A stretch of DNA of 64,000 nucleotides from Nageia nagi (lineage: Eukaryota; Plantae; Pinophyta), in the NCBI GenBank assembly GCA_050084985.1, contig JBITNC010000001.1:24366001-24430000 (forward strand), given 5' to 3'. The notes under the pieces were generated by a model that was not told where the DNA came from, ran no database searches, and saw only the letters and a program-made list of their open reading frames with translations. The translations under genes and the position numbers were made by a program. Below are positions 2,951 to 59,690 of this stretch, in pieces; the first letter of the stretch is position 1; each line of letters begins with the position of its first letter.

Positions 2951-3179
2951 CAATGAGTCTCCTTTGGCTTCTTCAATTCCTTCATCGACAACTCCTCAAA
3001 TCTTACCCAACAATAAGGGGAAGATCTCCAACTTCACTCAACAAATATTTTGTGTGTGATACCACTTTGATGTGGGTATCCCAAAATCTTGAACTTCAAC
3101 TCAAACCCTTTGTGAATGATGCCCTTAATTCTAGTAGGATGGCATAATCAAGGCTCTGATAGCACTATTATGAGACTCT

Positions 3180-4079: not shown

Positions 4080-4080
4080 A

Positions 4081-7000: not shown

Positions 7001-7123
7001 TCTATGTTTTGTTTGAAAAGATTTGTATCATAATTGAAAAAAGAAATCAGTCCTTGATATTGCATTCAATACATGGAATTCACAATAGTAGTATTCTCAA
7101 TTTTGGAAACATTCTAAGGCATC
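4081..7123 (+). mobile_element. Element A internal region, left part (decayed gag plus unidentified sequence); it continues as the reverse complement of 14830-13712
   Basis: PBS at 4081. Gag remnant AIHFASFHLEYIVHEWWHND...IFMEGLK (4251-4950). No RT or integrase motifs seen. Confidence 0.7.
4957..5106 (+). repeat. ~5 tandem copies of a ~29-bp unit (CCAAACAAAGTGGAAATGAAGATGAAGAG)
   Basis: Directly visible minisatellite. Confidence 0.9.
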
Positions 7124-9076
7124 GGCAGCGTGGGGTGATTAGCCAATGGTATTCTCTCATCACGTATTTTGATGAGTTTGTCAGACGATTGGTCAAGTGG
7201 TTCAATAGGAAGAGGGAAAATGACTACTTTCGAGATCTTACATCGTTGAGGTAGCTAGGTATGGTGGATGATTATGTGATAGAGTTTCAAAGGATTGCCA
7301 CTATGATCCACCATATTCTGAAGGAAAGATTGATATTCCTATTCATTGAGGGGTTGATGGAGCCATTACTGGGAATGCTTAAGGTATCTTCCCCTAAGAG
7401 CCTTGATGACACTATTCGGGCAACATACATCCTTGAGGCCATAGTGAAATCCCTCAATGTAGGGCAGACATATAGGGGGCCTATCAATTGGAAGTTGATT
7501 ACAAACAAATAAGGGCCTAACAAGTCCAAACCCTTCCCACTGTCTAGAAAAAATTAGTTAGACATAGCCACACGGTCTACAAGAAGGATTGGGAGCCAAG
7601 ACACCATTGCTAAAGCAAAGGGCAAGTGCATTATATAGAGGTGTTTTTGGAAGGTGAATCAAATGATTTGGATATGGAGATTGGGGTAGATACCCTAGAT
7701 CAGGATTCACCTCATGTTGAGGGTACATTGGGAAGCATGATTGCTTTGCTGCATGGAGTAAAGAAGTATCTACTCTGAAAATCATGGGGCAAGTAGGAGG
7801 ACAAGATGTGATGGTCTTGATTGATCCAGGAGCATCCCAAAACTTCATTAATGCAAGTTTTGATAAGAAGAAGAACCTGAAGATAAAATAATCGAGGGAT
7901 TCATGGTTTCCAACACCAACGAGAAGCTCACATTTTTGGACCACATAGGTGAGAGGTTTGGTGTGAGATTGCAGAGTTGTACAGTGAGTGAAGACTTTTA
8001 CATTTATCCTTTGAAGGGACATCCTGATATCATCTTAGGAGTGCAGTGGCTATTTGACTTGGGTGATATCCACACCAATTATTAGAAACTTACAATGAGT
8101 TTGAAATTGATGGGAAGAGACATACTTTGCAAGAAATCAAAGATGATTATCCATAGGTGGACAATAAGAGACTGGAGGTGATAGAGTGGTGTCAAGAGAA
8201 GGAGGAAGTAGAAGATGCATCCATGTTTAAAAAGCCAAAGAGTCAGCAAGAGTTGGAGGGTATTAGGGAGCTCCCACACCCCATGTTGTAGTCTAAACAG
8301 CTTAAGGGGTTGACATTGATGCATAAGGAGGATGGATACCCCATGTCTGGCATCTGGGAGGCATGTTACCTAACGTTGAGACTCAGGGAGGTGGGACACC
8401 CCACAGTAGACATTTGAAGAGCTAGGAATACCACATCAGGTCATTGGGAGCCTAGGCACCCTACGTTGAGTCTTTGGGAGGATGAGCTTGCTATGTTGAG
8501 CAATGATGATGGTTACCCAACGTTGGGCACAAGGAAGGTTGCATTCCCCTTGCAGGACATTCTTAAGATATGTGGTGACACATTGGACCTAGGAAGGTCT
8601 ATCACCTTAATAATGACCCAGCTGGTAGTTGGATATCCTACATTGGGGGATGAGATGAATCCTTGCTCCACACTAGCCATGGGGAGATTGTGGGAACCCA
8701 TGTTGAGCTCTGAGGAGTATTGGCTGCACATATGGAGCATAGGATCTACCTATTTTCACTTACATATGATTTTCTTAAGGTTTTTGTAGGTACACCTTCG
8801 CTCTGATATACATGCATTCTCATAAGTATGGAGGATAGCCATGGAACATCTAGTAAGGAGTAATAGTTATAGCAAACTAGAGTGTTTGCAAGATGCACTG
8901 ATACATGAGCATGGAGTTTCAGCAATGTACTGCATGTTGCTACCCTAGATGAGGAATATTGAAGTTACATTCCATTGCCATGAATTCCAACTCCCAAGAC
9001 TGAAGGATTCTTGGAAGATAATATGTTGTAGTCTTCTATCATTACTTGAGGGTAAGCAATTCAAGAGAGGAGGCTT
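7124..9076 (+). mobile_element. Element B internal region, 3' part (gag C-terminal half, aspartic protease, PPT), inside the inversion
   Basis: Gag QRGVISQWYSLITYFDEF...FIEGLMEPL, protease VLIDPGASQNFI and DIILGVQWL, PPT AAGAGAGGAGG before the LTR. No RT or integrase, so non-autonomous. Confidence 0.8.
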
Positions 9077-20343: not shown

Positions 20344-23111
20344 CTGCGAGTAATTCAAAGAGATTTAGAAAAAGTATGAGACTCCAGTGTCCAATAAATG
20401 CATCAGACCACCTAGTCAATCCTCAATAAATATAGAATAAACATGTTCTACACTTACGCAACAAGAAATGTATACAATTATCTACGAAACCAGACAACTA
20501 TAAAAACCATTCACCAGCAAAGTACAACAGAATCATGTATGCATTTATAAAATTCAAGACGGTGGAAAACATTCGCTTGAACAAAGTCATCCAGTAATGG
20601 GATTTTAAATCTCAATCAAATTTTATTTCCAAATATGAAATCAGAAAATCCTCCTTATTCCATCTGTGATGAGAGAATATTGTATTATAACAGATGAATA
20701 AAGACAATATTCCTGATGTGATCTGCTTACTGCACTAAATCTGAGAACAATTCACCAAATAAAGATCAACAAGTGAGGTATTGTATTGTTAATTATTGAC
20801 TACTAGGAGAACTCCGCTCTCAGATGTCCATACATTTGAGTAAACAAATTGTCCAAACATGCGATTACTAAGATACATTCAACATGGAATAGAAAATAAA
20901 TTAGTTTTCACAGACAAATAACAGAGTTCACATGTAGAAGCCCTCATAGGCATGGACTACTCAGAATTAACAGAAATTGCTATTATAGCACCAGAAAAGA
21001 ATAGGAAGTACAAAGGCTTTGCCATGAACTAACATTATGGTCCACTAATCTTCAATTGCTCCTTTCCTGCCTGAACAAAATACCAATTCAAATAATTAAG
21101 CATGGAATTTGCCACTACCTTGTCTTTCAGCTTTCTCAAACTCTAACAACCCACCACCTAATTCCTTTCACGTGGAAGGATCTGATTTAGTGGAAGGATC
21201 TGATTTTATAGTGAAAGGATTGATTCCTGATGGGTTTTCTGTTCTTTTAGTAGTTCAATCTTCCAGCTTTCTCAAATTCTAACAACCCACCACCTAAATC
21301 ATAAAATCTTTGTGCATAATATAGTCACTCAACACAGAAGCTACCACAATCACAGGATAGTCGATACTGTTGCTGAACCTCAATGAGTTGGGTTGGAACA
21401 TTTAAAAGCGTTTGTTTATGCATCCAATTATGTCATCATAATAAAAATATTGCAGATGACTATTATTTAGTGTTATACTTAGTTTAGTATTTCATACACA
21501 TATCAAATCTGTATAAATACAGATCTTAATATCTTAGATCCATATATGATCCACAAATTGGATTAATATATTAATTTTCCTAATGTATGCTTAAAAATAA
21601 ATTTGGCATTTATATTTGGTTTCATAATTCAGAAGGAAGAGGACTGCCATCGGTTCATTTCTGTCACAAACAGACCACAAGCGGTCCGTTCCTCACATGG
21701 AAAAATGGAAGGTGAAACAGTTTGAGCATTTTGGAGTTACTTGGGAAGCTGACGAGTCAAGTGCAGATCAAGAGGCATCGAATTTCCTTCAAAAAAACTT
21801 CTTAGGGATTTCATTCTTGATCATTGAAGAATATAAAATGGAAATTAGGAGAATTTGGAAGATGGAAGTATCTTCTTGAGCTCTTAGAGGGAAAATTGAG
21901 GAAAAGCCATTGAAGAACTAGACCAAAATCTTCTTGAAGCATTTAGAGGGAGGTTTGAGAAGCTCAATCAAACTTCTTGAGTCAAGTTTGAACTCGAGAA
22001 GCATCTCGAAGAGTAGAGTGGAGGAGTTGAAGAAATGTTGCAGCATTCAATAAGGAGATTTGTGATTGTGAGAGACAGTGTTCTCTTCCATTGACTGTAT
22101 TGTAATGTTTCTTTTGGCCAAATCCATAAAAATGAGCTCTTTTAGTCTGGGTGTACTCTCACATTGAAGGGAACTAGTATTAACATTGGTATTCATGTGT
22201 GTATGCAATTTTCTGTTAGTTTTATGCTAGTAGCAATTTTGTTTTAGTAGACATAGTTTGCAAACCAAATTTGAGAACTTAATTTTGCAGAAAACAGACT
22301 GCCAACAATCTTTTTTTGGGCAATTTAAGCCACCAACGATCCTTTTCTGACAGTAAAAATTGATAAAATTTCTGCATTAGATTGTGTCATATTTGTATGT
22401 GATGATCTCATGAATGGCTTGGCTTACTAAGATTTACAGATCATGTGGTATTAGAGTGGTTACTATTTTTGATGGGGCAATTACTAATCCATTGCAAAAG
22501 AAGGTTGTGGTTGTCTTTTTATGCCTGTAACCAGGTCCAGGAGTGAAAGCAATTTCATGGAAGCAGACCCTGAAATTGGCTCTAGAATTTGGTTGAGAAA
22601 GCAAAGAGAAATGCCCATGGAGAATTATGAGTTGAAGAGGAGGCTCGAAAGCAAGGAAGCAATGCTCAAAGATTTGATCGCAAAATTTGCAAAGTTAAAC
22701 ATCATCAATGCAAGAAAGGAACCAGATGTGGAAGAGAGTTCGCAAGCAGCACAAAAGTTGTCTTTGAAACTAGAGGTGAAATTTGATCTTAAATCTTTTG
22801 GAGGTGAAATTAATGCCGAAAAGCTGAATCAATGGTTGAAGTAAATGGAGGTATTTTTTAGAGTGTAAAAGATTGAGGATGATAATGATAACATTCAAGT
22901 AGCTACTCTCAAATTGGAAGGACATGCTTTGGTTTGGTGGGAAGCATATTGTGATGCCATCAAAAATGGTGATGAATTTAGTGTTTCAAGTTGGAGGAGG
23001 TTCAAGGAGCTTCTACAAAATCAATTTTATCCTCTTGGCCATCAACAAAATCAGACCATAAGGTGGTTCCATTTCAAACAAGAGAGGGCAAAATATCCAA
23101 GAGTACACAAT

Positions 23112-28480: not shown

Positions 28481-31136
28481 ATGAAAGTAGAATACTTCTC
28501 AGTTGTACCTCTTGATGTTGTCGGAATAGTGTTGGGAAGTTCATATTTGTTTGATAGGAATGCTATTTATCATAGCAAGAGAAAATAAATATCAGCTTGT
28601 AAAAGATGGTAAGCACTTTGTTGTGAAGCCTCATCAAAGCAAGAAAAAAACTCCTTTTGAGACAATGGGAGATAAGACCGTGATAAATACTTCAAGAAAG
28701 CTCACACTTGTGTCAACAAAACATCAAGAAAGAGACCAATTTAATCAGAATCTAGCAACAACATCAGAACTAAAGAAACGATAGATGGGGAGTGTAAGGT
28801 TCCATGGGATCTCACTCATCATTTGTACCTTTTGGAGGATCTCAATTATCATTCATTCCTGTTGGAGAGATTGTATCATGGAGTTCATGGATTGTTACAG
28901 CTTATCATCCATGAGGAGAAGAGTGGTATGGATCTTCATGGGGAATTATTGTTCCTTATCCTAATTATCTCTAAGCATTTGGAGACGAAATGCCTCTGCA
29001 TTGGGAAGGTGTGATCGAAAATTGGATTACTATATTAATTTTCCTAATGTATCCCTAAAAATAAAGTTGACATTTAAATTTGGTGTCATAATTCGGCAAG
29101 AAGAGGAACACCAACGGTCCATTTCTATCACAAATAGGCTGTCGTCCATTCCTAACATAGGAAAATGGAAGGTGAAACGGTTTTGTGCATTTTGGAGTTA
29201 CTTGGGAAGCTAAAGACTCAAGTGCAAATCAAGAGGCATCGGATTTCATTCAATAAAACTTCCTAGGGACTACATTCTTGATCATTGAACAAAATAGAAT
29301 GGAAATTGGGGAAATCTAGGAGATGGTAGTATGTTCTTGAGCTCTTGGAGGGAAATTGAGGAGAAGCCATTGAAGAACCAAACCAAAATCTTCTTGAGCC
29401 ACTTAGCGAGAGGTTTGAGAAGCCAAATCAAACTTCTTCAATCAAGTTCGAACTTGAGAAGCATCTTGAGGAGTATAGTGGAGGTATTGAAGAAGTGTTA
29501 CAGCAATTTAATAGGGAGATTTATGACTATAGGAGACAGTGTTCTCTTCCATTGACTTTATTGTAATGTTTCTTTTGGCCGAATTTATAAAAATGAGCTA
29601 TTTTAGACTGGATGTACTCTTGAATTGAGGGGAACCAATATAAACATTCGTGTTCATGTGTGCAATTTTCTGTTAATTTTATGCTAGTAGCAATCTTGTT
29701 TCAATAGTCAGAATTTGCAAACCAAATTTGAGCACTTAATTTTGCAAAAAACAAACTGCGAATAGTCCTTTACTAGGCAATTTAGGCCACCAATGGTCCT
29801 TTTCTGTCAGTAAAAATTAATAAAATTTCCACATTAAATTGTCATATATGTATGTGATGATCTCGTGAATAGCTTGACTTATTGAGATTTACATATCATG
29901 AATGTATGAATGCAAATCACCAAAAAGGTGCCACTCTAAATGCCTTGTCATCCACATTATGTCAAGACCCAAATGTACATGGGTATGAGGCAATTTAAGT
30001 AGTGTGTGTACCAGACTTAGGTTTCTTACCCAATTGAGACAGCAAAGCCTGCTAAAAAAAGACCATAAACATTGGATAGGTTGCAATTCTAGTGTTATGT
30101 TTTTGTGCTATTATCTTATGTATTGTTTTTTTATGAATATCATGGGTATGTGTCCCCCACCCTGTGGAAACTATCCCCGTCCCCTTGGTGTCCCTGATCC
30201 AAGGGAGCAACAAGGGAGATCTCTCCCTACCATCCATGGCCAGGCCCACCTAGACTCCACCGTTTTTGGACGGCCAAGGGATGCCAAGAGTTGTACCCAA
30301 GACAACTAGTCATACCTAGCAACAGTCTTTTTTTAGTTCAATCATGAGGCAAATTATTCTAGTAACCCCCTCATAGTTGCAAGTAAGATAATCTTTTAAA
30401 GTCTCTACTATCCACCTATTGGCTATGAAAAATTAGCTCGACTGTAACCAGACTATGACATGTTAGAACAACCATTATGATTTGAACCTCCCAAAGAGGA
30501 GCCAAAACTTAAACCATTGTGTTGTCCCCTTCTATCCCCACCTTGAAAAAGTTGTATAACCTTGATAAATATCTATCTTTCTTTTTTTTATGAAATCGCA
30601 CTTTTATATTACTTTAAAAAGAAGAAATGTAATACAAATATACAAAAAAAAGGTGGATGGGAAATCACACCCTCAAGAGTCTACACAATAGTAAAAAAAC
30701 CAAAACACTTAAGCAATATGCATGTAATCACAACATACCACGTGCAACAATATAAAGACAAGAGTTAACTAAGCAGCAGCAATGACAGAGCCAGAGGGAG
30801 GAGGTGGGTCATAGTGTGTGGGGCCTCCCCAACCAACCAATAGGAACATCCAAGGTGTTTGAGGGAGAATCCATCTCATGTTGGCACCATATCCAACAGA
30901 GTTAGCCTACTAGGTTTGGTTGTCATCCCATCTTGGAGAGATAGCAAGATTGAGGCAAGGGAACTTACCATTATTCTACCCACCCTATGACCCCAATCAA
31001 GAGGCTAGGGAAGGCAAGGTAGCGAGCCGTTCCAATGCCCATGTTGTCACTGAGGGTTAGAGCAAGGGGTTCATAATGCCTAGTTATAACGACGATAGCA
31101 CCCTTGGGACCAACTCCAACAAGCTGCCATTAACTT

Positions 31137-34100
31137 CTTTGATCTTATACCTGTCATCAACAAGCTGCCCATCAAATATATTAGTAGCAAAAACATTCTT
31201 AACATATTCAACCATTATTTGGGCCTTCCAATCAACATCAATGTTTGTAACAAAATGGAAAAAAGGGGTCCTAAAGAGTGCATCAATTGTTGTATTTTTC
31301 TTCCTCTTGACATACTCTATTTCAAAATCATATGCTTGTAATTTAGTGATCCATTTTTGTTGTCTATCACTCAATCACATTGTCCAAGAAAGTATTTAAA
31401 ACTGTTATGATAAGTTTTAACAATGAATTTGTTGTATATTAAATACTATCTGAATTTAGATAATGCATGTATTACTGCAAGCATTTCTTTATCATAAATG
31501 AAAAATATTCTTTCAACGGGACTGAGTTTTCTACGCTCAAATGATATGGACTGCCCTGTTTGCATCAAAACTGCACCTATCCCAAAACTAGTTGCATCAC
31601 ACTCTACCACAAAAGGTTTAGAAAAATCTAGAATGGCCAATATAAGACAAGAAATCATGACTGATTTTAATTTTCTGAACATTCATTTCTGATCATGCAA
31701 ACGCTCCCTTTTTTGTCAATTCAATCAAAGGAGCTGTTAATTGTGAAAACCCTTTCACAAATCTTCTATAAAAGCTACACAAACCCAAAAATCCCCTTGA
31801 TTCAGCCAATGAAGTGGGTGTGGGCCAATTCTGATTGGTTGCAATTTTTTCCTCATCTACATGTACACCCTTGCTGCTGATTTTATTTCCTAAATACAAA
31901 ATTTCTGACATTCCAAATTCACACTTAGACATTTTTGCAAAAAATTGTTGTTCCAAAATTGTTAAAACGGAATCTAAGTGTTCATTCCATGAATTGCTAT
32001 AAACAATTTATATCATCAAAAAAAACCAGCACATACCTCTTCAATTGAATCCTGAAAATATGGTTCATAACAGACTGAAAAGTGACAGTTGCATTTGTTA
32101 AACCAAATGGCATCACCAAAAATTCAAAGTTGCCAAAATGACATCTAAAAGCAGTCTTATGAACATCTTCATCTCTAACCTTAATATGATGATAACCTGA
32201 TCTCAAATCAATTTTTGAAAAGTAAATAGCTCCATGCAAATCATCAATCAACTCTAAATATAGGATATCTATTTTTGATAGTTTTCTTGTTCAACACCCT
32301 ATAATCTATACACATTCTTAGAGTTCCATCTTTTTTCTTTACTAGTACAACAGATGATGCAAAAGGAATAGAACATGGATGGATGTGTCCCATTTCAAGC
32401 AATTCCTTTTTTGTCTTTTCAATTTCATCTTTGTAAGCTCTAGGTGGTCAAATCCCCTATGGGGCGGCAAACCCTTAGGCAAGTCACCAAACACAATGCT
32501 ATGCCTATCCAAAATTGTCTGTATTTTAAGATGAAAAGTAACTCCATTTTTTGTAGAGGGTTTTGGCATACCTTTTAGCTTGAAAAATGTGGCTCCCCAT
32601 TGGACATCATGCATCTTGAGAATCTTTTCCATCTTATTGGCTGAAACTTGTTGTGGGTTATATTCTCTCATACCCTTCAAAGCAACCACTTGCCCATTGA
32701 CTTTGAATTTGAATTCCAAAGTCTTGTAATTGCAAAGAATATCACCCAAGGAATACAACCATTGCACGCCTAAAACAACATGGGGTATGCCTCCAATTGA
32801 AAAAACATAAAAATCATCAATTACAGAATATTTCCCAAAACTGATTTTTACCTTTCTTAGCACTTGCTCACAAATGGAAATCACACCATTAGCATTCTTC
32901 ACACCAAATCCAAAAAACGTTTATGCTATTAATCCTTTTTCCTTCACAAAATCAGCATCAATGAAGTTATGTGTGGCTCCTCCATCTATCAAAACTATAA
33001 CATTGGTATCTCCACGTTTACCTTGGACTTTGATGGTCATGAACTTAGACTCACCAGTGATGGTAACCAAAGTTTTATCATTTTCATCTTCCACAACATG
33101 AGATGGTTGATTTGAAAGCTGTCCTTCCTCACATTCAGCAAAATCAATCCCAAAATCAGAGTTATCAGCCTGAAAAATCAGAACCAGCAAAGGCAAAGGT
33201 TGGATGAGGCCATTAGGAGAGAATTGATGAGAAAGGGTTGAGCATATTTAGTCAACCTATCCACTACAACATAAATACAGTCTTTACCTTGGACTTTGGG
33301 CAAATTAGTGATAAGGTCCATGGACATGCTCTCTCACTTTTAATGCGAAACAGGCAAAGGCTGTAACAAACCAGCAAGATGAGTATGTTCAAATTTATTT
33401 TCTTGGCATGTCACACATTCTCTCACATGTTGCAGAACATCCTCCTTCAAACCTTTCCATGTGAACCTTTCCTTCAACAATCTTTAGGTCTTGTAGAAAT
33501 CAGGATAGCCAACCAAAGGTGCATCATGTAAAGTTGTCGTTAACTTCTTTTTCTTTTTTGAATCAGGAACTAAAAATATTCTATTTTTATAAAAAATCAG
33601 CCCATCCTTGATCTTATACATGTCATCAACAAGCTGCCCATCAAGTATGTTAGTAGCAAAAACATTTTTAACATATTCAGCCATCATTTGGGCCTTCCAA
33701 TCAACATTAATGATTGTAACAGAATGGAAAGAAGAGATCCTAGAGAGTGCATCAGCTGCTGTATTTTTCTTCCCCTTGACATACTCTATTTCAAAATCAT
33801 ATGCTTGTAATTTAGTGATCCATTTTTGTTGTCTGTCACTCAAATCACATTGTCCAAGAAAGTATTTAAGATTGTCATGATCAATCTTAACAATGAATTT
33901 GTTGCATACTAAATACTGTTTGAATTTAGATAATGAATGCATTACTGCAATCATTTCTTTATTATAAATGAAAAATATTCTTTCAATGGGACTAATTTTT
34001 CTACTCTCAAATGCTATGGGTTGCCCTTTTTGCATCAAAACTGCACCTATCCCAAAACCAGATGCATCACACTACCACAAAAGGTTTAGAAAAATCTAGA

Positions 34101-36324
34101 ATGGCCAATATAGGACAAGAAATCATGAATGATTTTAATTTTCTGAACGTTGATTCTACAATTTCTGACTATGCAAAAGCTCCCTTTTACATTGATGTGT
34201 AGCACTCCAAGGCTGTCTACAGAAAAAATGCAAACCCTTTCTCATCAATTCTCTCCTAGAGGCCTCATCCAACCTTTTCCTTTGCTGGTTCTAATTTTCA
34301 GAGGCTGATATCTCTGATGTTGGGATTGATTTTGCTGATTTTGGGGCTAGAACCTTTGATTTGGTTGCTGATTTGGCTTCCCCCATGATTGCCCACCTTG
34401 TTGGGGAACCCTAGATGATCAAGATTTGGTTTGTTGGCCAAATTTAGACTGTTGTCCCCATGTAAAAGATCTAGATCTGTTATTACTCATTGTTGGATCA
34501 AGATCTAATGCCTTATCTACAGCATCATTAAGTGTTGAGGATTTCAAAGCTCTCACCATACCTCTTAAAGGATCCATAAGACCATTTATAAAAAGATGGA
34601 CCACTCTATCATGTGCTAAATCAGGAACCATAAGAGAAAGTTTTTGAAACTCTTCAATATAATTCTCTACTGAATTTCTTTGCTTTAGTGCAGCCAACTC
34701 GCTAAAATAGCCATTATCTTCTTTCTTATCAAAACGCTCTAAAAGCCTTTTAGCAAACTCATCAAAAGAAGAAATGGTGCTATGACCTTTTGTGATAAGG
34801 CCATGATGCCACCAATCATAAGCTACACCATCTAAATGCAAAGATGCAAATTGAACTGCTGCTTCTTATACCATAGGGCTAAGTAAAAGATATGTTTGTA
34901 CCTTAAGTAACCAAGACCTAGTTGAAATTTTGTCATCTCCATCAACATAAGGAAGTTGCATCTTACCTAATTTGTGTAGCAAATCTCTTTTATGATCATT
35001 TCCATAAGAGCCACCATGAGATCTAGCTCCTCCATGCCTTTTTCCTATGATCTCCAAATACCATCAAAAGGAACAATGTCTTTGTATGCTTGAGGTTTGG
35101 CTGAATAACGCTGAAAAAGATGGTCAACTTCTTGATCAGTTACTTCTGAATCAACAACTTCAACCGATGGCTGAATAAACATGGGTTTTATTGGTTTCCA
35201 AAATCTAGAAACCCTAGCCATTACACTCCCATGAGTGTTACCTCCATAATTATTTCCACCATGTGTAAAACCTTCACCTTGAGTGACATTAGGGTTAGAA
35301 ACCACAATGTGGTGGGACTGTTGAAGATATTGAGGCCTTTGTGGGTGTAATGCCAAGTGCTCCAACCGCTCATTCATCAATTGTAGAGATTGATCCATTC
35401 TTGTCAAGATAGTTTTCAATGGACTTTTCTTCAATGCCACCACTAAAGAATCCTCCATGACTTTGGCAAATTTCTCCCCATCTGTAGGCTCTCTTGGCTG
35501 ATCCACTTCTTCATGGATCTCTACATGCTGATCTTCATGCCTATCGATGCCAAAAGGTGGAACTGAAGTCTCCTTCATAGGGTTAGGTTGTCTTTTCTTA
35601 TTCCGTAAATTATAATGATGTGTTGCTGCTCAACAACACCAACTCATAGGCTGGCAAAATCTTGTCTCTAATACCATAGAAATGTGACAACCAAGATATA
35701 TAGAAAATTTGCACAAAAAAAACCAACAAATATAGATCTGATTTTCTTATTTCATCCACAGAAAATTAACAAAACAGAATGCAACTGTTCTCAAATAGAG
35801 ATCTTACAAACCCAAATTCCGATTTGGTTATACACCAAAAAATCAGCAGATCTAATCCAAGTGTTGAATATGAATTATACAAAATATTTTCCAGCAATGC
35901 CCTAGCTGGATGTTGCCTACAAAAAAGCTAAAACAGCTGCCAAACTTAAGAAAAGGTCTTTTTAAGGCTGGACATTACACCTTGAGGGTGTAAACTCTCA
36001 GATCTAAACTCCAACAATGAATCTTCTTCAACAAATTGAGTACAAATGCAAACCCTGTGTGGATCTGCCTTAAGGAAACAAACTTAGGGTTTTAAGACTA
36101 AGTCTCCAAGAGGTTGGATCTCTTAGGGTTTCCCTCTTTGAAGGATTTTCAATCTTCAAAGGAATAGATTATTACTAGCCACAGCAATGATCTCAAAGAT
36201 AGAAAATCAAATATTATCCAAGCATGAGAGCAAATGAGCCTTTCTCTCATACATGTGATGTGTGTCTTATACAATAACTATGTATGTGATGTATACTAAA
36301 TTTGTAAGTGGTTGGATAGTTACA
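31137..36324 (-). mobile_element. Decayed, rearranged Ty3/gypsy element I (5' LTR ~36324-35683, PBS, gag, PR, RT, RNaseH, partial IN); 3' end lost
   Basis: PBS TGGTATTAGAG near 35676. Gag [40 protein letters not shown]...VMPFGLTNA...VFFDDI, RNaseH FVVECDA...YDKEMLA, integrase start VVVDRLTKYA. Confidence 0.9.
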
Positions 36325-39139
36325 TCAGTGGTAAACTAATTACAATTTAAAATGTCAATCATGTGCTTGTATCAAGGTGCAAATAAATAATCATTAGTAA
36401 AGCTCTCAGCACATCAAATTTGCAAGGCAATTCAACTTCTCAATTGAAAAGCATGTTTTTCCTTCGCCTTTCAACATTGATGGGAAAACATTATATTGCC
36501 CTCCAAATGACAGATTTATAAATAATTAAATTTCAAACAATAAAATTGCATTTTATGTATACATTTACAAACACAATATTAAGTTGTTTGAAGTACGAAA
36601 AAGAAAACGTATTTTAAAATTTCATGATGTGATACAATATCTATCCTAGAGGAAGTGGGCCTACATGCCAATGAATTGCATGCAAATATTGAGCCGCAAA
36701 AAGAGACCAAAACATTAATTATGTCCAAAGTATTTATAGATACTTCAAACTTATCATCATTCATATGTGATTCACCTTTGAAATCCTGTACTTTGCTGAA
36801 GTCAATGTTGATTTGCTAAGATGCTCCAAAGATTTGGTTTTTCTCCAAATAGACTACCTTTACCATCAAAGGATTCGAACTCAACAAACTCCACTTCAGA
36901 TTCTACTTTAGCAATTCGAAAGAGATGATCTATAGAGCCTTCATCCAGACCACTTGGGTTTCTCCGCCCCAATCATTGACACCCAAGTTAGATCACTATG
37001 CACAGCACTACCTTCAAATTGAGAGAGCATTGATCTCCCCTCCTAGTTACATCAACATATTGTCCCCCTTGGACAATTTCGAGTATGCTCTCACCAACTA
37101 AAGATTGAGTCTGACCACCACATAGCCTAGGATCTACGAGTTTGCCACCTCTACTTTCTTGAGACTGAATTCGAAGACCACTTTGCTTTCGATTCTCGGT
37201 TTACAAAGGGATTCATGGCCGATACCACTATCTATTCTAGGATTCTCACAATTCATTAGCTACATTCCTTCAATATACCCAAATCAACATTGCTTGGCTA
37301 TATACTTCTAAGAGATCTTCCTTCTTCGAAGGCGCCTTCTAACCCATGCCCAGCAACCAACAGAGGACCTACATATTACATCCTTCTTCCGACCCTCTTC
37401 TTCCAAGAGAGCTCATAGGAAACATCAAGATGAGCACTCACATCCCCTACATCGGAGCAAGAGACGTATCCAAGAACCTCAAGTTCCATTGAGGACTCAA
37501 CAAATCACATCCTTCTTTTCTTCCAGCAATGTTGCCACAGACACATCCCCCAGAGACCAACAGGATCCCTTCCCGAGATAGAGAGCATGATTCATGCTCC
37601 CAAGTACAGGATTGTTTCCCTCTAGCTAACTATGATATTGGTCCTCCCTCTCTTTAGGGTTTGGACCTTTTGTACGGATGCGTTTTCTTATATCACCTTT
37701 TTATGCTTTCTTTAGATGTTGCCTAGTAGGGGCTTTGCTGGCTTCACGAGCATGATTGTACTTATTAGTCCCATTGACCACTTTTGGTCACCGAGGACAT
37801 TAATATACTTTCTTTCACCTTCGTATTGATCTCATGTTGTTAACATATTTCTTATTTGATATCCTCTATGAAGCATAACAAAACAACCTCCCAGTTTCAC
37901 CTTGCATTATTCAATGTCATCAAGTGAAAAACCTCCGCAATAAAACTTTTCACGTATATATTCTAATCATTAACTCATTTCTAATTCTCTTCATCTTCAT
38001 AAGAATAACAATGAGAATCGAAAAGTTTTGTTGCATAAAATATTGCTAGATCCATAAACCCTTTGTTAAAACAATCAACCATTTTTTGAACAAATGTTTT
38101 ACTCAAGTTGATGCAATCATCTATCGTGCTCGATCAAGTGCAATATACTCAAATCTTAGCACATGCACATAAAACAAGTGAATTATCAACAAATACCACA
38201 TCTCCATATCTAGCATTTTTTAAAATGATGATATATGTCAACTCCTTGAACCAAAAACATTCTGAAAAATCTTTTATGAAATGATTAATCAGAATTTTCA
38301 TATATATTCCAAGTGATGTCAATATGATCTTCCTAAAACTTTACTTACAATTGATTAAGTTCAAATAAAACATTAAAAACTAGATTAATGCAAAATTGAA
38401 CTTGGATTATTGTTCCCATTCAATACATCTTGTTTCCATTTATGTCATAATGCTGGCATGATTTTAAAAAGTCTTTTCATGCCCTATCTTCTAGAAAGCC
38501 ATTGAAATGAATGAATCTCAAGTATTGCCAATTTATCCATTTAAAATAGATCCATTAAGCTTTTAATATCTCCATACCTTTTTGTTGATTTAACCAACTA
38601 TTCAGATTTCAAGTTTGCTAATCTTTCAATATAATGAAATTCTGCAAAACAATTTAAAACATTTGTTACAGCCAATGTCTCATGATGTGCGATACAATTG
38701 ATTGATGACAAATGAGACATATCACTAAGTATCTATGCACATAATCCAATATCAATATCTCTAATAACTGAAGTTCCATCTAAATCCCACCAACACACAA
38801 TCCATCATGAAATAATTGAAACTCCATCGGACCCAAATCTCACCATCTTTTATTTTGGTAACTCCATCTCCAATGGTAAATCATTTAATGAATCGCACAT
38901 AGATTGTTCTTTTCCATCATGAATTTTAATAATTATCAAAAATTTAATCAAAAAATTTAAAATATTGAGGAATGGAGATTTTTAAATTAATCTTATTTGC
39001 AACTTGATGTCAGGGACTTGATAGAAGTACAATATGTTGATGGAAAACCACACATAGATCTCCATTATCCGCTATATCAACCTCATGTAATATCTATCAT
39101 ATCTTTTGCTTAAAGTTGCAAATAAGATCACATGAAGAT

Positions 39140-40652: not shown

Positions 40653-41899
40653 AAGATCACATGAAGATCTCTATTACTCACTCAATAATTGCAATGATTA
40701 AATTTATTATACTCCTTAAAATTTAGAATAGAAAAGCATAATATATGTATGATTCACTAAATGATTTACTATTGAAGATCGAATTTATCAAAAGAGAAAA
40801 GAGTAGTGTTGGGGGCTTTTTCTTTCCTACCCTGCTGATAGGTAAATTAGCTTGCAAGGCTTATGGAAAACACCAACAGCTAGGTGGTAGGGCGTGACCC
40901 CTACCCACTATGAGGATTGATTACCTCAAAGGTCTCGTGACGGGATATGCAAGAGGTTACTCAAGAGACTGATTGAAATGTTTAAAGTTGTTTCCTACTC
41001 AAATAGAATTTGTTAATCAAGGACTCAAAGGGTCCCTATCTCCAAAAAATAGTTGTTTCTCAAAAGAAAAGCCAAAGTAAGGTTGCAAAAGTTGCGAGAA
41101 AAAAATGAAAAATAAAGAAAAGGTCGAGTAGACAGTGATATGTGAGTTCAACACAAAAGTTCAATGGTCTCATTGACTAATATAGGTTTCAAGAATTAAC
41201 TCTCATGGGCTTGTCATCGGTTCCACACACTCTAGATCCGACTTGCTAGTCAACAACACGACTGACCTAGCACGAGGAGCTTGAAGCTAAGGCGATGAGA
41301 ATAAGTGATGAGAGGTGGGTAGAGCTTAGATGAGGGAGTGAAATTCTTATGCTAAGCGAGATATGGGAGCCATCTCAAAGTGCACAAGTCTATAATGCAA
41401 ACTATGAATTATTACACAACCATGCACCTCTTAAAGTACTTCTAAAAATGTTCAAACACTATTTTGTCCACCTTAAGCAAGATTTACAAAATGCACCAAG
41501 TATTCATGACAGCACAAGATAGTAACATCCATTCATATTCATAGTTCCAAATAAGTTCACCATTCAATTACTTGAAATATATCACATTCACAAATTGCGG
41601 AAACTTGCAAGCTTGAAAGTATTAAGTAAGTTGTCCAATTTTCAAAAATGTCTAAACCCCTACAAATGAGCCCAAATGGGCTATAAATAGTTTTCTTGGC
41701 AACCCTAGTTGTTGCCCTAACCCTAATTCCAAAATACAAGAACATACACATGGTTCAATCACAAATTGCCACATGGTATTACAAGGTTTCTTCCAAACTT
41801 TTGGGAGTAAATCCTCATCCATCACAAGTTTGGGAATTAAATAATAAAGTATTTCATTAAAATAAATGTCATTTTCTTTGAAAATAAAAATAAACTTGA

Positions 41900-44800
41900 A
41901 AATTGTGACTAAGATGACGATGGGCCCAAAGCCGCAACTCGTTCCTCGAAATCCTCATCTAGGAATTTCGCAATGAGTTCCAATCCATGTACCATCTTTG
42001 CAATCTTTGATCAGTTCTCAGCGACACAGCATCCAACTTTCTCGATCAGTCTTTGCATCTCATTCTTCCAGGCATGGGCTCTAAACATGTGCCTAAGGTG
42101 ACTTCAAGACTGATAGGTGTTGACATCATCCGTCATGATTAAACTATGGAGGAAATGTCTAACCTTTGTCACTACCAGGTCCATTTCCCTGATGGTGTAT
42201 CATCATCTATGAACTTGACCTGGAGTTCCATCTATTCAAGGCTTGTGTTAGCCTTGTCGTTGAGTACTTCAACCTCCTTATGCACCTCCTGGAAGCGAGA
42301 GGCTATCTGATTGACAACACCTAAGTAGAACCAATAATCTTCACAAAACTTTACATCCTCAAGCCTCTGATCCTAAGTCATCTCAATCTCAATATCATTG
42401 GTTTCCGAGATTCTAGAATTCTGAGAAGGTTGATTCTTTCCACCACAATATCTTTCAATTTATGTTCTTCAACTGTGACCCTTTACAATGCAGCAATGAA
42501 TTGCTGCACCACTATCAAGACTTCGTTGATCACTTCTTGTTTCACTGCAATCATACCCTCCTTCAAGGGTTTTATCTTTTGAAGTTCCTTTGGGGGTACC
42601 TTTGCGGACTCCATCTCCCTAGTCAATCTCCTCTGAGCGGCTAACTCCTTCTTGAGGCTTTTTATCTCCTTTTCTTTTAGCATCCCATCCTTGGCGATTG
42701 CCTCAGTGTTATATATGATTGAATGTTTTTTGCCAGCCACATCAATAGGACCTGTATTGATAATTTGGTTTATTTTCCTGAGGTCTCCAGGTTGTTGTGG
42801 GTTGTTCTTGTCAACAATTATGGTCTTAATGTGAACTGCATTGTTAGCCAAATGCACATAAATCTTACTCTTACCCTAACAAGTGGAGCTTTCTCCAACT
42901 TGGTCATTAACTTCTCTACCTCCAAACTCCTCCCCGACATCCATGTTAACACCCCATTCATTAGTGGGTGATGGTAAGTATTGGTGGCATTTCTCTTCGC
43001 TTTTTTCAAGGGTCTTCTTCTTCAATATATATTCCTCAAAGGCTTCTGATGATCGAGACTAGGAAGTTCTCTTCACTTGTGCTCTTCTTTGTACTGACTT
43101 TGATGTTGGACCTTTACCCTTCCCTATTGAAGGTTCTGATGAAGTAGGCTTTTGAACTACCTTCAAAATCTCTAAAGATCTATCCTCTTGTTGGGTACCC
43201 TAAACATCATTACGTTGCATTGTACTCACTTCATGTTCATCTTTTGATTCACCTGCTTGTCCTTCCTCTTGACTTTCATCAAGTTCATACATGGGACTAG
43301 AGGATGAGGACTCAAATGGCGGAACAACTGGTGATGGATATGCAGTCGATTCTCTAGGTGGTTTTTGCGGTGGGGATGGATCCTTCTCTTTGTTCCTAAC
43401 ACATTTCACCATCTTATCAATGGCCACACGCTCCAACTCTCTCATGTCATGCTCATCAATGGTGTCCCTAACTTGTTGTACTACCTGCTCCATTAGATTC
43501 TTACCACGCATTGATGCATATTGTCTAACAAGTTCTTCAACTGTAAGGGGGAACTGGGTGACCCTGGAAGTGGACTCTTGTGGTCTTCTCCCCTTTTGTT
43601 GTGACAATCTCTTGTCGATAGTGGCTTCAACAGTTTGTTGTTACTCCTGAGCATCCTTATGCATCTTGTCACAGATCTTTCTCATCTCCACCTCATTGCT
43701 TATATTTCTGAAGGGCTCCTCTTCTATGGATAGCTTATGTTCATAAGGTCTTTTCCTTCATGTAGAATTGGTGAATTTTGTGTTGTGGATCATAGTGACT
43801 TGCAGCAGGCATCTCTTTGAAATTGAATCTTTCAAACTCCTCTTTCATTGTGTCAACATCTGCCCATGTCTTGCACTGGTATTCCCCCACTATGATTGCC
43901 AAGTTGGAGGTGGCCTATTTCTTTTGCCATACCTGCTCATGTAAGTAGGTCAACTGCCTCATCATCTCCATTAGGAGCAATTTGTTGCTCACATATTTGG
44001 GCAATTAATATGGTTCCACGGTTGGCCAATGAATTCGGATGTAGGAATAGTGTTGGTGATGGATAAAAAAGTCCCCATGCTTCCTCAACGCGTCTTGGGC
44101 TGAGTTAGAGATCCTAGCCACTGTGCTTTCTCCCTTAAGCTCCTTATAGATCTCATACTCGCATCCATCATTCTTCATGATGAAACTATCCCCTCTCCTC
44201 TCAAGCTTCCATTTGGGGTAGTACTTCCAAATAGCATATGTTCCTTTCTCAATCCATGCTACTTCCCCTTTAGTTGTGGCCATATACTTACCATGGAACA
44301 ATAAGTATACCAGGTAGGAGTTGAGGTAGAATTTGCATGTGGTGCCAATGGATGATAACTGATCTGCAATCATGTCACTCAACACCTTGTTCCACTTAAT
44401 ACTCTTTCCTCTAGCCATCTCCACGATGAAGCCAAAGAATTCCTTCTTGAACTTAGACACATCTTCTTTTCCCAAAATCTTGGATAACATCAAGATCATC
44501 AACTCAACGAAGGGGTAGAAGTTGAAGCGAGGGGCATTGATGAGAGCATTCCCTTTAAGTTTATGATGCTCATCTAGCATCCAATTCCTTATTGCAACGG
44601 CAGCCCTGTTAGTCTCTTGATAACATGCTAGTGACTCTGCTTCATTGTATTCAAAATTTCCCTCTAAGTTCCACTGGAATGCCGTTTTGATGGCTTTGGG
44701 GTTGAAATCCATAATGATTTCTCGGAGGACTCTCTCTCCCTTCTGCCAATGATGACCCACTTCGATGCACAATTCAGGAAAAGGAGCTATAAATGGGACG

Positions 44801-45061
44801 AAGGCACAAGTGTAGAGCTCGGAGAAGAATACAATGTCTTGTTTGAGATCACTGACTTGCAACCCATGTATTCTCTCTCATTTGCATAGGATCAACGTCT
44901 TGCCATTCTGTGTCTCCAATGGTAGCAAGACCATTCTTCGAGAATTTGGCCCCTTGGGGAAGGGGCTCTTGTCTTTCACAGATGGTGATGATGCAATATT
45001 GCCTCAGTCGTTCACGTTTCCTAGCAAAGTCTTTAGTCGAATTGCTCTTAGAAGTGGTCAT
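41900..45061 (-). pseudogene. Decayed ~1000-codon retrotransposon accessory ORF inside LTR J (plant-transposon/env-like globular domain, S/E/P-rich linker, coiled coil)
   Basis: Collinear minus-strand ORF pieces 45061-44849, 44862-44005, 43607-43200 and 42857-42483. Motifs IKWNKVLSDMIADQL..FYLNSYL and YIRIHWPTVEPY*LPKY. The 3' end is approximate. Confidence 0.7.
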
Positions 45062-45281
45062 GATGCTCAATCTTGCAACAAGGTCCTTCAAGGGTGATGT
45101 CTGGGTTTTCAAGTGGTGAGGGTACCCAACGTTGGATGTCTTGTCTCCCAATTCCTTGCGCAAGCCCCGAAATGCAATATGATGGATTTCAAACTCAAAA
45201 ATTGGCAATTTTTTGCAATTCTGGCACAAATGTAAAAGAGGAGTGTGATTTGAATTTGAGAAAATGAGGTCTCCAAGGTTG

Positions 45282-45289
45282 TATTTATA
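45282..45289 (-). promoter_or_regulatory. TATA box of LTR J
   Basis: GCTATAAATAC on the minus strand, followed by a pyrimidine-rich leader, ~220 bp upstream of the ATG at 45061. Confidence 0.65.
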
Positions 45290-45556
45290 GCTGAAACTAG
45301 CTTCCAACAAACCTTAGTCGGCTAGTTCATAATGAGAATGCATCCTGGTCATCCAGATGGCCAACCTCAAGATGTGTGCACGCCCGAATCATGCGCCAAC
45401 TCCAAGGATGGATGCTCTTTCTACGATGGTCTTCTTTGCTCCCTAGCTCATCCATCTTGACCTCGAGGTTCGTCCTGAGACCTGATTTTGCTCTTTCTAG
45501 GACCGAACCTCGCCGAATTTGATCATTAAACCCAACCTGGACACCCCTCAAGTCAA

Positions 45557-46306
45557 GCACATGATTCAAAAAGAAAAGATTTTGCCTTTTCGAAACATGC
45601 ACCCAACTCTTCAACTCTCCCAATTTGAGCGCATGATCCAAAAAGACAAGATTTTGTCTTTCTGGGGCATGCGTTGGGTTGCAGATGCCCAAATTTGCTT
45701 TGTTTAGAGATCTTGCTTCCATGACTTAGCCAAATTTTCTTGATTTCCTCCTCCTGAAGGCTCTCTAGGTCTAGCACATGGTTCAAAAAGTCAAGATCTT
45801 GTCTTTTGAAATCATGCACCAGCCCTTCTAGTGTTGCTAGAGCTGGTTTTGGGGTTCGAGGCTTCATGCCTTGGTCAAATTTTGCTTTTCAGACCAATTG
45901 GGTGCCTCTATGGCTTGAGCGCATGCTCCCAAAAGAAAAGATTTTGTCTTTTTGAGGCATGCACCAGCCTCCTGGATACTCGAGCTTGACCTTCTCATTC
46001 TCGAACTTGTCCTATGCTTGCTCCTGGCTTGAGCACATGGTTCAAAGAGACAAGATTTTGTCTTTTTGAGGCATGCGCCAGCATTACAATGTCTTCCACT
46101 TGCCTCTTCTCTGCTCCATCTTGTTCCGAAATGCTCCTCGACCCAAGCGCATGCTTCAAAAAGACAAAATTTTGTCTTTTAGAGGCATGAGCTAGGCCTA
46201 AAAGCAGTCCAGTTTGACTTTTTGAGACTTAACTCCAGTCTAGGCGGCTCCCTGACTCAGGCGTATGATTCAAAAAGACAAAATCTTGTCTTTTTGAGGC
46301 ATGCGC
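45557..46306. repeat. Array of seven 46-bp imperfect palindromes in the U3 region of LTR J
   Basis: Copies start at 45557, 45629, 45774, 45919, 46033, 46147 and 46261. Consensus ~GCGCATG(N)TTCAAAAAGACAAGATYTTGTCTTTTTGA(RG)CATGCGC. Confidence 0.9.
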
Positions 46307-47799
46307 CAGGCCTAAAAGAGGCCTAGTTCAATTTGACTCTGTCCCGACTCACCCTGGACTCTCCCGATTCATTTAAGATCGACTTTTGGTTTTCCAAACT
46401 TAGTCATTTTTTTGAGAAATTTCAGATTTTGGATTGATATGACTAAGCCTAGGCGAAGGATGAGACTTAAACCTGGAGAACTTGACATTGAGTTTGGGTC
46501 TTGCGAAATTACTTGGACTGGACGAGACAAAAACATGACAATGCATTCACACAAGTTGTTGAGGGTCCCCAAAATCGCAGGATTTTGGGCATGTTGTGTT
46601 TAGTCATAACAAGTAGGATTTTGGTTAGATGGAGCTTTAACTATGAGAGATATTTGTGATAAATTGTGTGCTAAGTTACTTAATGATTTTCCCATTATTA
46701 TTATATCGATGAGCAATTGGCTATCACAAATTATTTCTTTGAAATTTATTATATTAAAAAATTAGCAAATTTGACATATACATAGTTTGGAAAATCAACA
46801 AAAAGACAGATCTTAAAAACTTAATGGATCTATGTCTAATAAATGAATTGTTAGTGCTCCAATTTCATTCAATCTAAAATAGGTGATTGAAAAACTTGTT
46901 AGAATTATATCGGCATTATTACAAAAATGGAAACAAGATGAAACATTTGTTCAAAAATTGGTTGATTGCCTTAACGAAATATTTATGGACCTTCCAATAT
47001 TTCATGCAACAAACATTTTCCATTCTCGTTGTTATTCTATCAAGAAAATGAAACATAATTAAATACAACTCGATAATTAGAACACTTATGCAGCAAGTTT
47101 GACATCAAACATTGTCCACTTGATGATGTTGAACAATGCAAGTGAACTATAAAATTTTGTTGTGATGTTGTATGGATATTTAACAACAAATATGTTAACA
47201 TCATGAGAACAATGTGGAGGTGAATGTGAATGGTAGTCACTTCCAAACATAATGTGACTTTGGCAAGAGGTTCATATTAATGTTTTTGTCTTTTTCTGCT
47301 GCTCAAAACCTACATTCAATTCATTGGCACAAAGCTTTATAGCAATCGAAAAGTATAAAATCGAGTAGGTCTCCTCCTTTATGATAGAATTCAATGATTA
47401 TTGTATCACTTGATGATACTTTAACATTTTTTTTTACTTCCTATAAAAAATATATCCAATAATTTACTATTAACTACTTTTGTTTGTTATATATTTTTAA
47501 ACTTAATTTAATATTTATTTTCTTATTAAATATTTAAAGTACTTATTTACATATTTCAAAAAAAATTTATATTACTTTCACTAATGTATACATAAAATGC
47601 AATTTTATTTTTATATTTCTTTTTTAAATCTATCATATTCTTTACACGAAAAGGAAAACAATATCTTAGCTATCCAAGGAAGGTGAATTGGTATAATTGA
47701 TCATCTTTGTAGTGAAGGCCAAGGTCAAAACACATCCTTCTCATGGTTAAATGATTCTACACTACAAGTGCAAACTTAGTAATCGTAACTAAGATGAAG

Positions 47800-56166: not shown

Positions 56167-59100
56167 TATTGGGAAGGAAATATTTCCTCTTACTCAGCGA
56201 TCACCTTGAGATGATCCAGATTGGGAAAGCAACCCAATTTTTAGGTGAGAATGCATTACTAAAATCTTATTGTAAGTATCGATACCCCAAGGTTTCTTAC
56301 GAAGCTTATATCATTAATACAAGCTTGAATTATGGAGGTCTTGTTTGGGAATCAACTAAGTGGTGTAGTAGAGGTAGTAATTTTTGACACATAGTTTTTA
56401 TAGGGATTGAGATGTTTGTTGTGCAATAGTTCAAAAGTTACTAAGTTTTAAAGAAAATGAAAAAGTAAAAAAAAAAAATGAGAATGAGGCAAAATATTGG
56501 TTAGATTTCAAAGAGATAGTCACAATGTAGCATTGTCTAAATTTCCTTTCTTTTGGATCAATTAAGAAATCTTGTTCAATTCAATCAAGTCTTTGAAATG
56601 AATGACTGTTGTCCAATCATTTCAAAAATGAGCAAAGAGCATAGTTGACTTTCAATACTCTGCAAGCAGGGCCAATGCAATCAAATGGACTAAGTATGAG
56701 TGAGGGTGAATGGTTTTGAACAAGAGGTATAGGAAGATGTATTGAGAGAAAAGCCAATTCATAACACAAAAATTTAAAATGCAAGCAATGGATTAGAAAC
56801 AATTCAAGATGATCCAAACATTTTTGAAAAGTTTCCAACAAACTCTCTTAAAACTTGAAAGTTTTCAAAGAGAATGCACGAAAATATTTGAATTATAGAA
56901 ATTATTCTTATAGGATCAATCCACCACTCCAATAGATGAAAACACACTTTGAATCAATTTTTAACCACTTGTATTATGTTCATAAAAGATTTATGCACAT
57001 GCACATAAGTTTTCTCCTCAATTACAGTTTTCATGAAAATTGGTCTTTGCTTAGACTTGAACATTTAACCCCAAAATGAGACCCCCTATGTCGTATTTAT
57101 AAACTTTTTGGAGCTCACTTTTAAGTGTTGCCCTAATTTTAACCTAATGAAATTGAAATACAAATGAAATTATGAAATTACATTTGAAGTGGTAGGAGAT
57201 ATCATTCATCCTTTCAACCACTTCTAGTGTATATATATGAAAATTGATCCTTTTACAAAGGATCTTATGGATATTGAGCCAATTTTGGATCTCCTTCACC
57301 ATCTTTGAGTACCCTTTTCATTTAAATATGGAATCCACCATTTATTTGAGTGATCTTGGCAAGCTTTTAAGCATTTGGTGAAGATTTTCTAAAATTTTGG
57401 ATTTTTTTTTTGTGTAAAGGTGGAAAATGATGGGGGCAGGGCAAAATTTATAAAAAAAAATTAAAAAGTGCCTGGATGGATCTTATATGGCCATGGATGG
57501 ATGGGAGATGGATCTTATAGCTTTTTAATATCGATTTGGAGGTTTTTGGATCTTGGGCTCAAAATTTGGAATTTTTATCATTTTAGAAAAAAATTGGCTT
57601 AAGTGACCAAATATGATGCTCAAATATGGATAAAAGCTCATGTTTGGTGCTTAAGTGCTCAAATTTGGTGCTCAAGTGCTTAACTTTTTTGTATTTTGCA
57701 TGCTTTGTAGTGTCACTTGATCATCCCAAAGGTGCATTTTACATGCTCCATTGAGTTTGATATCACCAAACCCCTCCATTCCTGCACTTAGCCTTCTTAT
57801 ATGCAAAAATTTATCATTTTTCAAAATCCTTTAGCCATTTGATATAGAATTTGGAGTGCAATCCTCTTATGCATTTGAGTAAAATTTTCAATTTTTGTCA
57901 AAAATGACATATGCACATGTGCTAGGTGCCAATTTCATGGTGTTTGATGTGTCAAAGGTCTCCATTCTTGTGCCTAGGATTTTTAGGCTCTATACTTGAT
58001 TATATTTAAAATTTTAAAGTTTAAATGTGCTCAAAATAACCCTTTCTATGCACCCATATGCTCAAAATTTAATGTTTATCAAAATTCGACTTCATGTTTG
58101 AGGGGTATGTACTAAAACTCAACCATTTGAAGGTGTTAAATATATGAAAATCAATGCCTAAGTTTTTGGGCCTCCAAATATGGTCAAATAAAAAAAATTC
58201 AAGTTAAAATGTGCTTAAAACAACCTCTTCCATGTATTCATGCAATCAAAAATCTATTTTCACTTTTGTCATCTTGAACTAGGCACCAATTTGGGGTGCT
58301 TTGGTGTGCCAAAGCCATGAAAATATGTGCCTAGGAATAGGAGAGCTTAAACTTGCTTAAAATTGAAAATTCTAAAGTTTAAACCTCCTTGAAATTAAAT
58401 GACCTTTCCCATGCATCCATGTGTTCAAAACTTGTTTTCCTTAAAAATTCAACTTGGCATCTTGAGGTAGGCACCAAAATGAGGTGCTTTGATGTGCCAA
58501 AGCCACAAGAATATGCACCTAGCTCTTGGAATGCTCAAACTTGGTCAATTATTAAAATCCTTTATCCAATGGGTGTGAAATTTGAAGTGTAATGCCCCCA
58601 TGCTCTCTAGAAAAGTTTTAATTTTTTGACAAATAGCCTTATACCTCCCCTAGGCACTAAAATTGAAGCTTTGAGATCACCAAAGGGATGAAAATGATGC
58701 CTAGATTGAAAAGGTACAAAATTTGATCATTTTTAGAAATTCAAAGCCCAATCTAGCTTATTTTTTGGTGCTCTCCAATACCCATGTGTTTGTTTTTTCA
58801 CTTGATCATATTGAAATTTCATAATTTTGGAGAATGAGCATGCTAGGCATCTATATTTTGACTTTGATGGCACCAAAGGGTTGCATTATTGTGACTACAT
58901 TTTGAGGATGATTTCTTAGTCTAATTGGGTGGAGGTAAGAGGAATTTTAATGTTTTTTTGTACCCTCCATCGATCTAGGCACCAATTTCTGCATCAAAGC
59001 ACCCTAAAACTGTACTTAGGTGTAAATGGCCTCTTTTGATGATTTTTCAAGAATTCCAAGCCTAAATTTATGCAATTTTATGCTCCACATCATACCCATA

Positions 59101-59690
59101 TGCTATATTTTTAAAAAAATACAAATTGTTGTGGAAAACATGCATTTTCCCAATCTAGGCACCAATTTCCTTGCTTTAATGGCCTCAAAGCACCCTAAAC
59201 CTGCACCTAGATGCAAATGGCCTCTTTTTGATAATTTTTCAAATTTACAAAGTTGAAATTTCATGATTTTTTAATTTGCATAGTTGAAATTTTTGAATTT
59301 GCAAAGTTGAAATTTCATGATTTTGAAGGCCTATGAGTTTAGGTAGCAAAAATATTGATTTGATGATGTCAAACCCTTTAAAACTTGTGCCTATGCACAC
59401 GAGACATAGATTTTAATTTTTTTAAAAAATTTCAGGCCCAAACTTGCTTGAAATTCAATCCTTCACAACTTGGCATCCTCAAAATTTGCTCGAAATTTGA
59501 TCTTGAAAATACCCATTTTGCCTTAGGTGCTAATTTATATCCTTTGATAGCATCAAAGCTTGGGAAATTATGCCTAGTTAGGAGAGGAAGCAAAATTGAT
59601 CGAATCTAAAAATTTTAAAGCCTAAACTTATCTAAAATGGGATCTTATACTAGCATGTGTCTTCTAATTCCAATTCTAGCAAACTTTGAA
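56167..59690 (-). mobile_element. Large LTR-like sequence with a TATA box and a degenerate repeat-rich U3
   Basis: Begins T(A)TTGGG where the copia RT breaks off. Minus-strand TATAAATA at 57101-57094. Degenerate repeats (TAGGCACCAA, GTGCCAAAGCC) at 57900-59620. Far end unresolved. Confidence 0.5.

Follow-up and report, generated by a model that had tools for sequence, protein, structure and literature searches.

In a window of 64,000 nucleotides (assembly GCA_050084985.1, contig JBITNC010000001.1, positions 24,366,001 to 24,430,000), a 5,805-bp element with TG..CA termini (40807-46611) was found to belong to a high-copy family, whose members are units with fixed ends. Its accessory gene is genuine and has been shaped by purifying selection; these points, together with the constant position of the gene in the unit, are well established. 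The element is likely a solo long terminal repeat (LTR), probably in plus orientation, of a Tat/Ogre-type Ty3/gypsy family; its gene would probably lie antisense in U5 and encode a VANC21/PMD-like domain that would bind a neighboring palindrome array. As a whole, this reading is proposed tentatively, as somewhat less than an even prospect.

The ends were described in the original prediction as TGTT...AACA with a 5-bp target-site duplication (TSD), enclosing neither an LTR pair nor gag/pol genes, and all of this held. The element starts with TGTT at 40807 and ends with AACA at 46611, with AGTAG on either side (40802-40806 and 46612-46616, plus strand). Among 1,216 TG/CA pairs located within about 300 bp of both ends, one showed a 5-bp duplication, which matches the expected number of about 1.2; the TSD by itself is thus at chance level, and its use as a significant argument on its own was dropped. 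The ends are fixed by two independent lines of evidence, the flank alignment and the read depth. When joined, the two flanks form a continuous match to an inverted paralog at 38426-38982 (64%, 558 columns, E 7e-50), interrupted at the junction by short indels. In the contigs of four public runs, which represent at most three samples, the summed depth was 8-8,000 inside the element and 0-3 outside; the depth falls at the bins containing both element ends, with an edge exactly at 40807. No direct repeat (best E 0.3) and no remnant of a repeat pair was found between the element's own ends, and searches of the element gave no gag/pol family match and no Rfam family. A solo LTR is recognized by TG..CA termini with a TSD of 4-6 bp at a true insertion site, by the absence of an internal LTR pair and of gag/pol, and by polyadenylation signals downstream of a promoter on the same strand; the first two were found here, and the third is present on the plus strand at the level of motifs. 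By exclusion, a solo-LTR origin is fairly likely. The surrounding DNA is a decayed repeat in two inverted copies (36507-38982 and 40664-47636, 68-83% in pieces, 1.7 kb between them), which may be a long terminal-inverted-repeat or fold-back element; the right copy is the one interrupted. A label of the flank as copia reverse transcriptase (RT) lacked Pfam support and was dropped.

A relative was detected on a metagenome contig (L001), the one locus obtained from 33 pattern-matching stretches in a single metagenome scan. L001 starts with the TG that marks the 46611 end of the element, next to an unrelated flank, and is collinear over 3.1 kb with 79-82% identity, covering the right end, the palindrome array, a minus-strand TATA box, the start codon, and 1.55 kb of the open reading frame (ORF), within which the contig stops. 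Because L001 shares these parts in the same order, the element is no one-off deletion. At the 40807 end, to which the flank comparison applies, other copies lie next to sequences that bear no relation to one another, indicating that the unit moved many times with fixed ends. The agreement was 0.45-0.56 (six rows of 5-11 contigs, among 48 rows); in simulations, unrelated flanks agreed at 0.44-0.51, and flanks of which 45% had a common continuation at 0.55-0.59, with overlapping 95% ranges. Several contigs match the element only from 40817-40819 inward, and two of them share other upstream sequence (agreement 0.87), which suggests a subfamily with another left terminus.

The accessory ORF lies on the minus strand and spans about 1,050 codons from the ATG at 45061 to a stop at 41909, in agreement with the predicted start and decayed extent to about 41900. 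Its own promoter, a TATA box at 45290-45282 (predicted at 45289-45282), is conserved in L001, as is the ATG. The ORF is broken by at least seven in-frame stops and by frameshifts near 44877, near 43757, and in the last 500 bp. It would encode a globular N-terminal domain, a low-complexity acidic/Ser/Pro linker, and a likely coiled-coil C-terminus; the distal reading path is putative. Homologous proteins cover 45112-43566, and the ratio of nonsynonymous to synonymous divergence (dN/dS) was determined for 45061-43510; it revealed purifying selection on this first half of the ORF, to which the result is limited. Absence of such selection had been named in the original prediction as a finding that would refute it, and this refutation did not materialize. 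The copy in the window is dead and therefore no expression cassette itself, contrary to the proposal that each solo LTR remains a self-contained one.

A structure model of the 290-codon open stretch at 44008-44877 (minus strand) matches the DNA-bound domain of VANC21 (PDB 9lnk), as does the model of a homolog, P0036. This is the only solved structure that matches the predicted core fold, and it belongs to a sequence-specific DNA-bound anti-silencing protein. The identity of the ORF core to VANC21 is 7-10%. For this stretch, 70 homologs were found at E ≤ 0.001. Searches of Pfam, PDB profiles, Foldseek PDB and BFVD, pdb_via, and the ESM Atlas yielded no assignment; 9lnk was not among the PDB profile matches, no DUF1985/DUF287 sequence match was obtained, none of 44 alignment members matched the PMD family PF10536 at E ≤ 0.1, and the proteins in 10 of 10 cluster look-ups carried no name. 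Of the profile and structure searches called for in the original prediction, which had not identified the protein, the Pfam search gave nothing and the structure model gave a VANC21-like fold; of the predicted protein parts, the globular domain stood, and the coiled coil is likely. A PMD-like fold may follow indirectly from the VANC21 match, as the PMD is reported to resemble VANC DUF1985 (10.1101/2024.09.27.615353; PMC13547354). The predicted fold points to a PMD/DUF1985 (VANC) kind of protein, and it is quite likely that the ORF protein adopts the PMD/VANC fold.

The predicted palindrome array was recovered at 45557-46306 (unstranded) and is also present in L001. It comprises seven dyad-symmetric units of 44-46 bp, which are candidate binding sites. 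Their dyad symmetry is 0.70-0.87, and only 0.05% of the other 44-mers in the window reach 0.6. As RNA, the array folds strongly (z -17.2, 20 shuffles). The non-coding divergence between the element and L001 (0.22) is well below their synonymous divergence (dS, 0.56), which suggests that the array region is constrained. Public contigs over 45521-46428 frequently skip, jump back, or change strand from one palindrome unit to another; unit number and order therefore vary among copies.

The orientation of the element was deduced from its promoter and polyadenylation motifs. The 1.1-kb tail past the ORF, predicted to be AT-rich, indeed has a GC content of 35-42%, but it is not featureless. It contains a plus-strand TATA box, CTATAAATA, at 41681-41689, two AACCCTA motifs, and, following the TATA box, four plus-strand AATAAA signals at 41807-42056; no minus-strand AATAAA follows the ORF in this interval. 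The motif CTATAAATA occurs four times in the window; two of the four, on the plus strand at 41681 and on the minus strand at 45290, lie in the element and point toward each other (P 0.0085 by shuffling). In all four runs, the bin 41662-41888 had the highest read depth outside the palindrome array, and the depth was 517-4,682 at the plus-strand TATA box compared with 8-348 around the minus-strand one. Since the TATA and AATAAA core and the depth peak are on the plus strand, the ORF appears to be antisense, and its predicted sense position in a minus-strand R/U5 is probably wrong. Given an LTR, the element probably runs on the plus strand, with a putative U3 at 40807-41710, a putative R at 41711-41915 (AACCCTA motifs and AATAAA cluster), and a long U5 whose antisense gene ends at the edge of R. 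The originally predicted minus orientation is possible but unlikely. In it, the array would be a U3 enhancer as in Sirevirus LTRs, the ORF would be read in the sense direction from R/U5, comparable to an Ogre ORF1 that the LTR has taken up, and the plus-strand TATA box would be an antisense promoter. The succession of array, TATA box, and ATG is indeed that of a normal promoter, and L001 has conserved all three. Sirevirus LTRs are known to contain palindrome-rich cis regions (PMC4728375), lineage IV Tat/Ogre elements carry a sense PMD-coiled-coil ORF at their 5' end (PMC4408406), and the minus-strand end CCAACA fits the 3'-end motif [CT][CT]AACA better than the plus-strand end ATAACA does (PMC11656987). 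The distribution of AATAAA signals and of read depth described above speaks against it, however, and R would reach about 3.4 kb.

What weighs against an LTR of either orientation is that no full element accompanies it. None was found in viral contigs (searched by protein and by both end motifs) or in bacterial genome contigs; neither a primer binding site (PBS) nor a polypurine tract (PPT) appeared in these searches or in the left-end flanks, and these showed no common continuation with either. Longer or fused homologs were absent among 1,043 and 5,414 candidates, which is weak evidence. As conifers mostly have 4-7.5 complete elements per solo LTR (PMC5751070), the lack of a shared continuation is evidence against abundant full elements, weakened by the fact that contigs collapse identical copies. 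The element could instead be non-autonomous and stand alone. It might, for example, descend from an old Tat III element in which both outer ends and the internal antisense ORF were retained while the repeat pair was lost, and which then spread otherwise, such as by integrase acting on single-unit DNA. Such a unit, which we regard as rather unlikely, would account for the missing continuation and the missing full element. TG..CA termini with a 5-bp TSD are, on the other hand, an integrase product that needs two LTRs for copying, no remnant repeat is left between the ends, the exact left end is common to many separate insertions, and the exact right end recurs in L001 at about 80% identity. A VANDAL or Mutator-like (MULE) unit would have a TSD of about 9 bp instead of 5 bp. 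The length of 5.8 kb, at or beyond the upper LTR size of about 5 kb in the REXdb survey (PMC6317226), fits a stand-alone unit, and the plus-strand order of promoter core, antisense ORF, repeat array, and end is reminiscent of a Tat III/Retand 3' region in compressed form (PMC4408406, PMC11963269). Even with the favored solo-LTR structure, the protein might have nothing to do with the array and be a common chromatin or transcription factor of the PMD type, or else a particle or nuclear-import helper, with the palindromes serving as host transcription-factor sites or as sources of hairpins or small interfering RNAs (siRNAs). A common fold does not show function; host PMD proteins act in silencing or against Polycomb, with direct DNA binding not yet shown in the accessible parts of the sources (PMC5418596; 10.1101/2024.09.27.615353), and the strong RNA fold of the array recalls the siRNA-attracting palindromes of Sireviruses (PMC4728375). 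This explanation is considered improbable, because the only solved fold match is the DNA-bound anti-silencing protein, the VANC arrangement unites a gene with an array of repeated motifs in a single element (PMC5735166), and the low non-coding divergence suggests constraint on the array region.

In the favored solo-LTR reading, transcription of the genomic RNA would begin at the plus-strand promoter (41681) and run to a polyadenylation site near 41900, and the accessory mRNA would come from the minus-strand promoter at 45290. The accessory protein might form dimers via the coiled coil and attach to the dyad units that lie upstream of its promoter, keeping the LTRs of its family demethylated or active, a sequence-specific feedback loop as of VANC for VANDAL transposons. 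Recombination between two LTRs would then leave the gene and its target sites together in each solo copy. That the protein binds the array and acts in anti-silencing is possible but rather doubtful, and a gymnosperm retrotransposon with a full VANC-type anti-silencing module (gene plus palindromic targets) in its LTR must be called unlikely. If true, a full element would contain two modules and a solo LTR one, the host's main way of removing elements would spare de-silencers acting in trans on the family, and the VANC/PMD fold would be placed in retrotransposons outside flowering plants. Sequence-specific anti-silencing has been shown for Arabidopsis DNA transposons; a retrotransposon version surviving solo-LTR formation would bear on element persistence in giant genomes. 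The function of extra ORFs in Tat, Ogre, and Retand is an open question (PMC7264820, PMC4408406), and a VANC21-like core beside a candidate target array would allow a direct test of binding and methylation. For annotators, the element is a warning that kb-scale genes may hide in LTRs near the 6-kb limit of LTR finding (PMC6317226). No description of a plant LTR with a PMD/VANC-type gene was found in the open full-text literature searched; the REXdb supplements may list LTR-located extra ORFs.

The element is located in a transposon-filled 31-kb intron (20344-51334) of a Josephin/ataxin-3 gene on the minus strand, which has two exons (51583-51335 and 20343-19405). An intron so large and so rich in transposons points toward a gymnosperm. 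Decayed Ty3/gypsy gag and RNase H ORFs at 31136-35629 (minus strand) are unrelated to the element and are accompanied by a 586-bp direct repeat (31136-31712 and 33605-34188, 90%). A 900-bp direct repeat pair (21547-22445 and 29012-29900, 84% identity) probably represents the LTRs of an old element. Long nested inverted repeats (3172-4080/12620-13525 and 9075-11283/15987-18302, 83-90% identity) were also detected, pieces of which match L001 upstream of its element, too. Short tandem-like repeats with a period of about 180-190 bp occupy 57806-59242.

A complete protein gene within a retroelement LTR is known in sag of mouse mammary tumor virus (MMTV), but sag is short, sense, in U3, and of an animal retrovirus, and the proteins are unrelated. 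Antisense ORFs with their own promoters (aORFs) sit between pol and the 3' LTR (PMC7264820, PMC11963269); aORF-3R of Grande, RIRE2, and Retand resembles the gene studied here in its accessory nature, its antisense direction, its separate promoter, and its location next to repeat arrays, but differs in that position, in mostly encoding Transposase_28, and in its LTRs of 315-1,194 bp (Retand survey). Sirevirus LTRs share the palindrome-rich, hairpin-forming block; they are Ty1/copia, however, and the abstract of the source mentions no gene in the LTR (PMC4728375). The PMD occurs in 57% of Ogre elements, with LTRs of up to about 5 kb (PMC6317226), PMD-A is encoded by Gypsy (PMC5418596), and gymnosperm Tat III carries an antisense PMD extra ORF at its 3' end, lineages IV-V a PMD plus coiled coil (PMC4408406). 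The element resembles Tat III-V/Ogre in its long non-gag/pol ORF with a predicted PMD-like N-terminal fold and a likely coiled coil, and these lineages have LTRs of great length as well as repeat arrays; with Tat III it shares a likely antisense ORF and a likely gymnosperm host. In contrast, the extra ORFs of Tat/Ogre are described 5' or 3' of the polyprotein region and not within the LTR; the ORF found here has no PF10536 match. VANC recognizes motifs repeated in tandem and removes methylation from its own family (PMC5735166). VANC21/VANC and the element have in common the predicted core fold and an array of repeated motifs within the element's non-coding DNA, probably also a coiled coil, but the identity to VANC21 is low, a DUF1985 Pfam match is lacking, the carrier is an LTR-type unit and not a DNA transposon, and the units are dyads of 44-46 bp compared with motifs of 8-9 bp in VANC systems. 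From VANDAL Mutator-like elements it is separated by its 5-bp TSD, its TG..CA ends, and the absence of any transposase family among the searches. By sequence, the ORF falls outside PMD and DUF1985, and its carrier is not a VANDAL; in its mode of operation, it corresponds to the extra ORFs of Tat elements and possibly to VANC.

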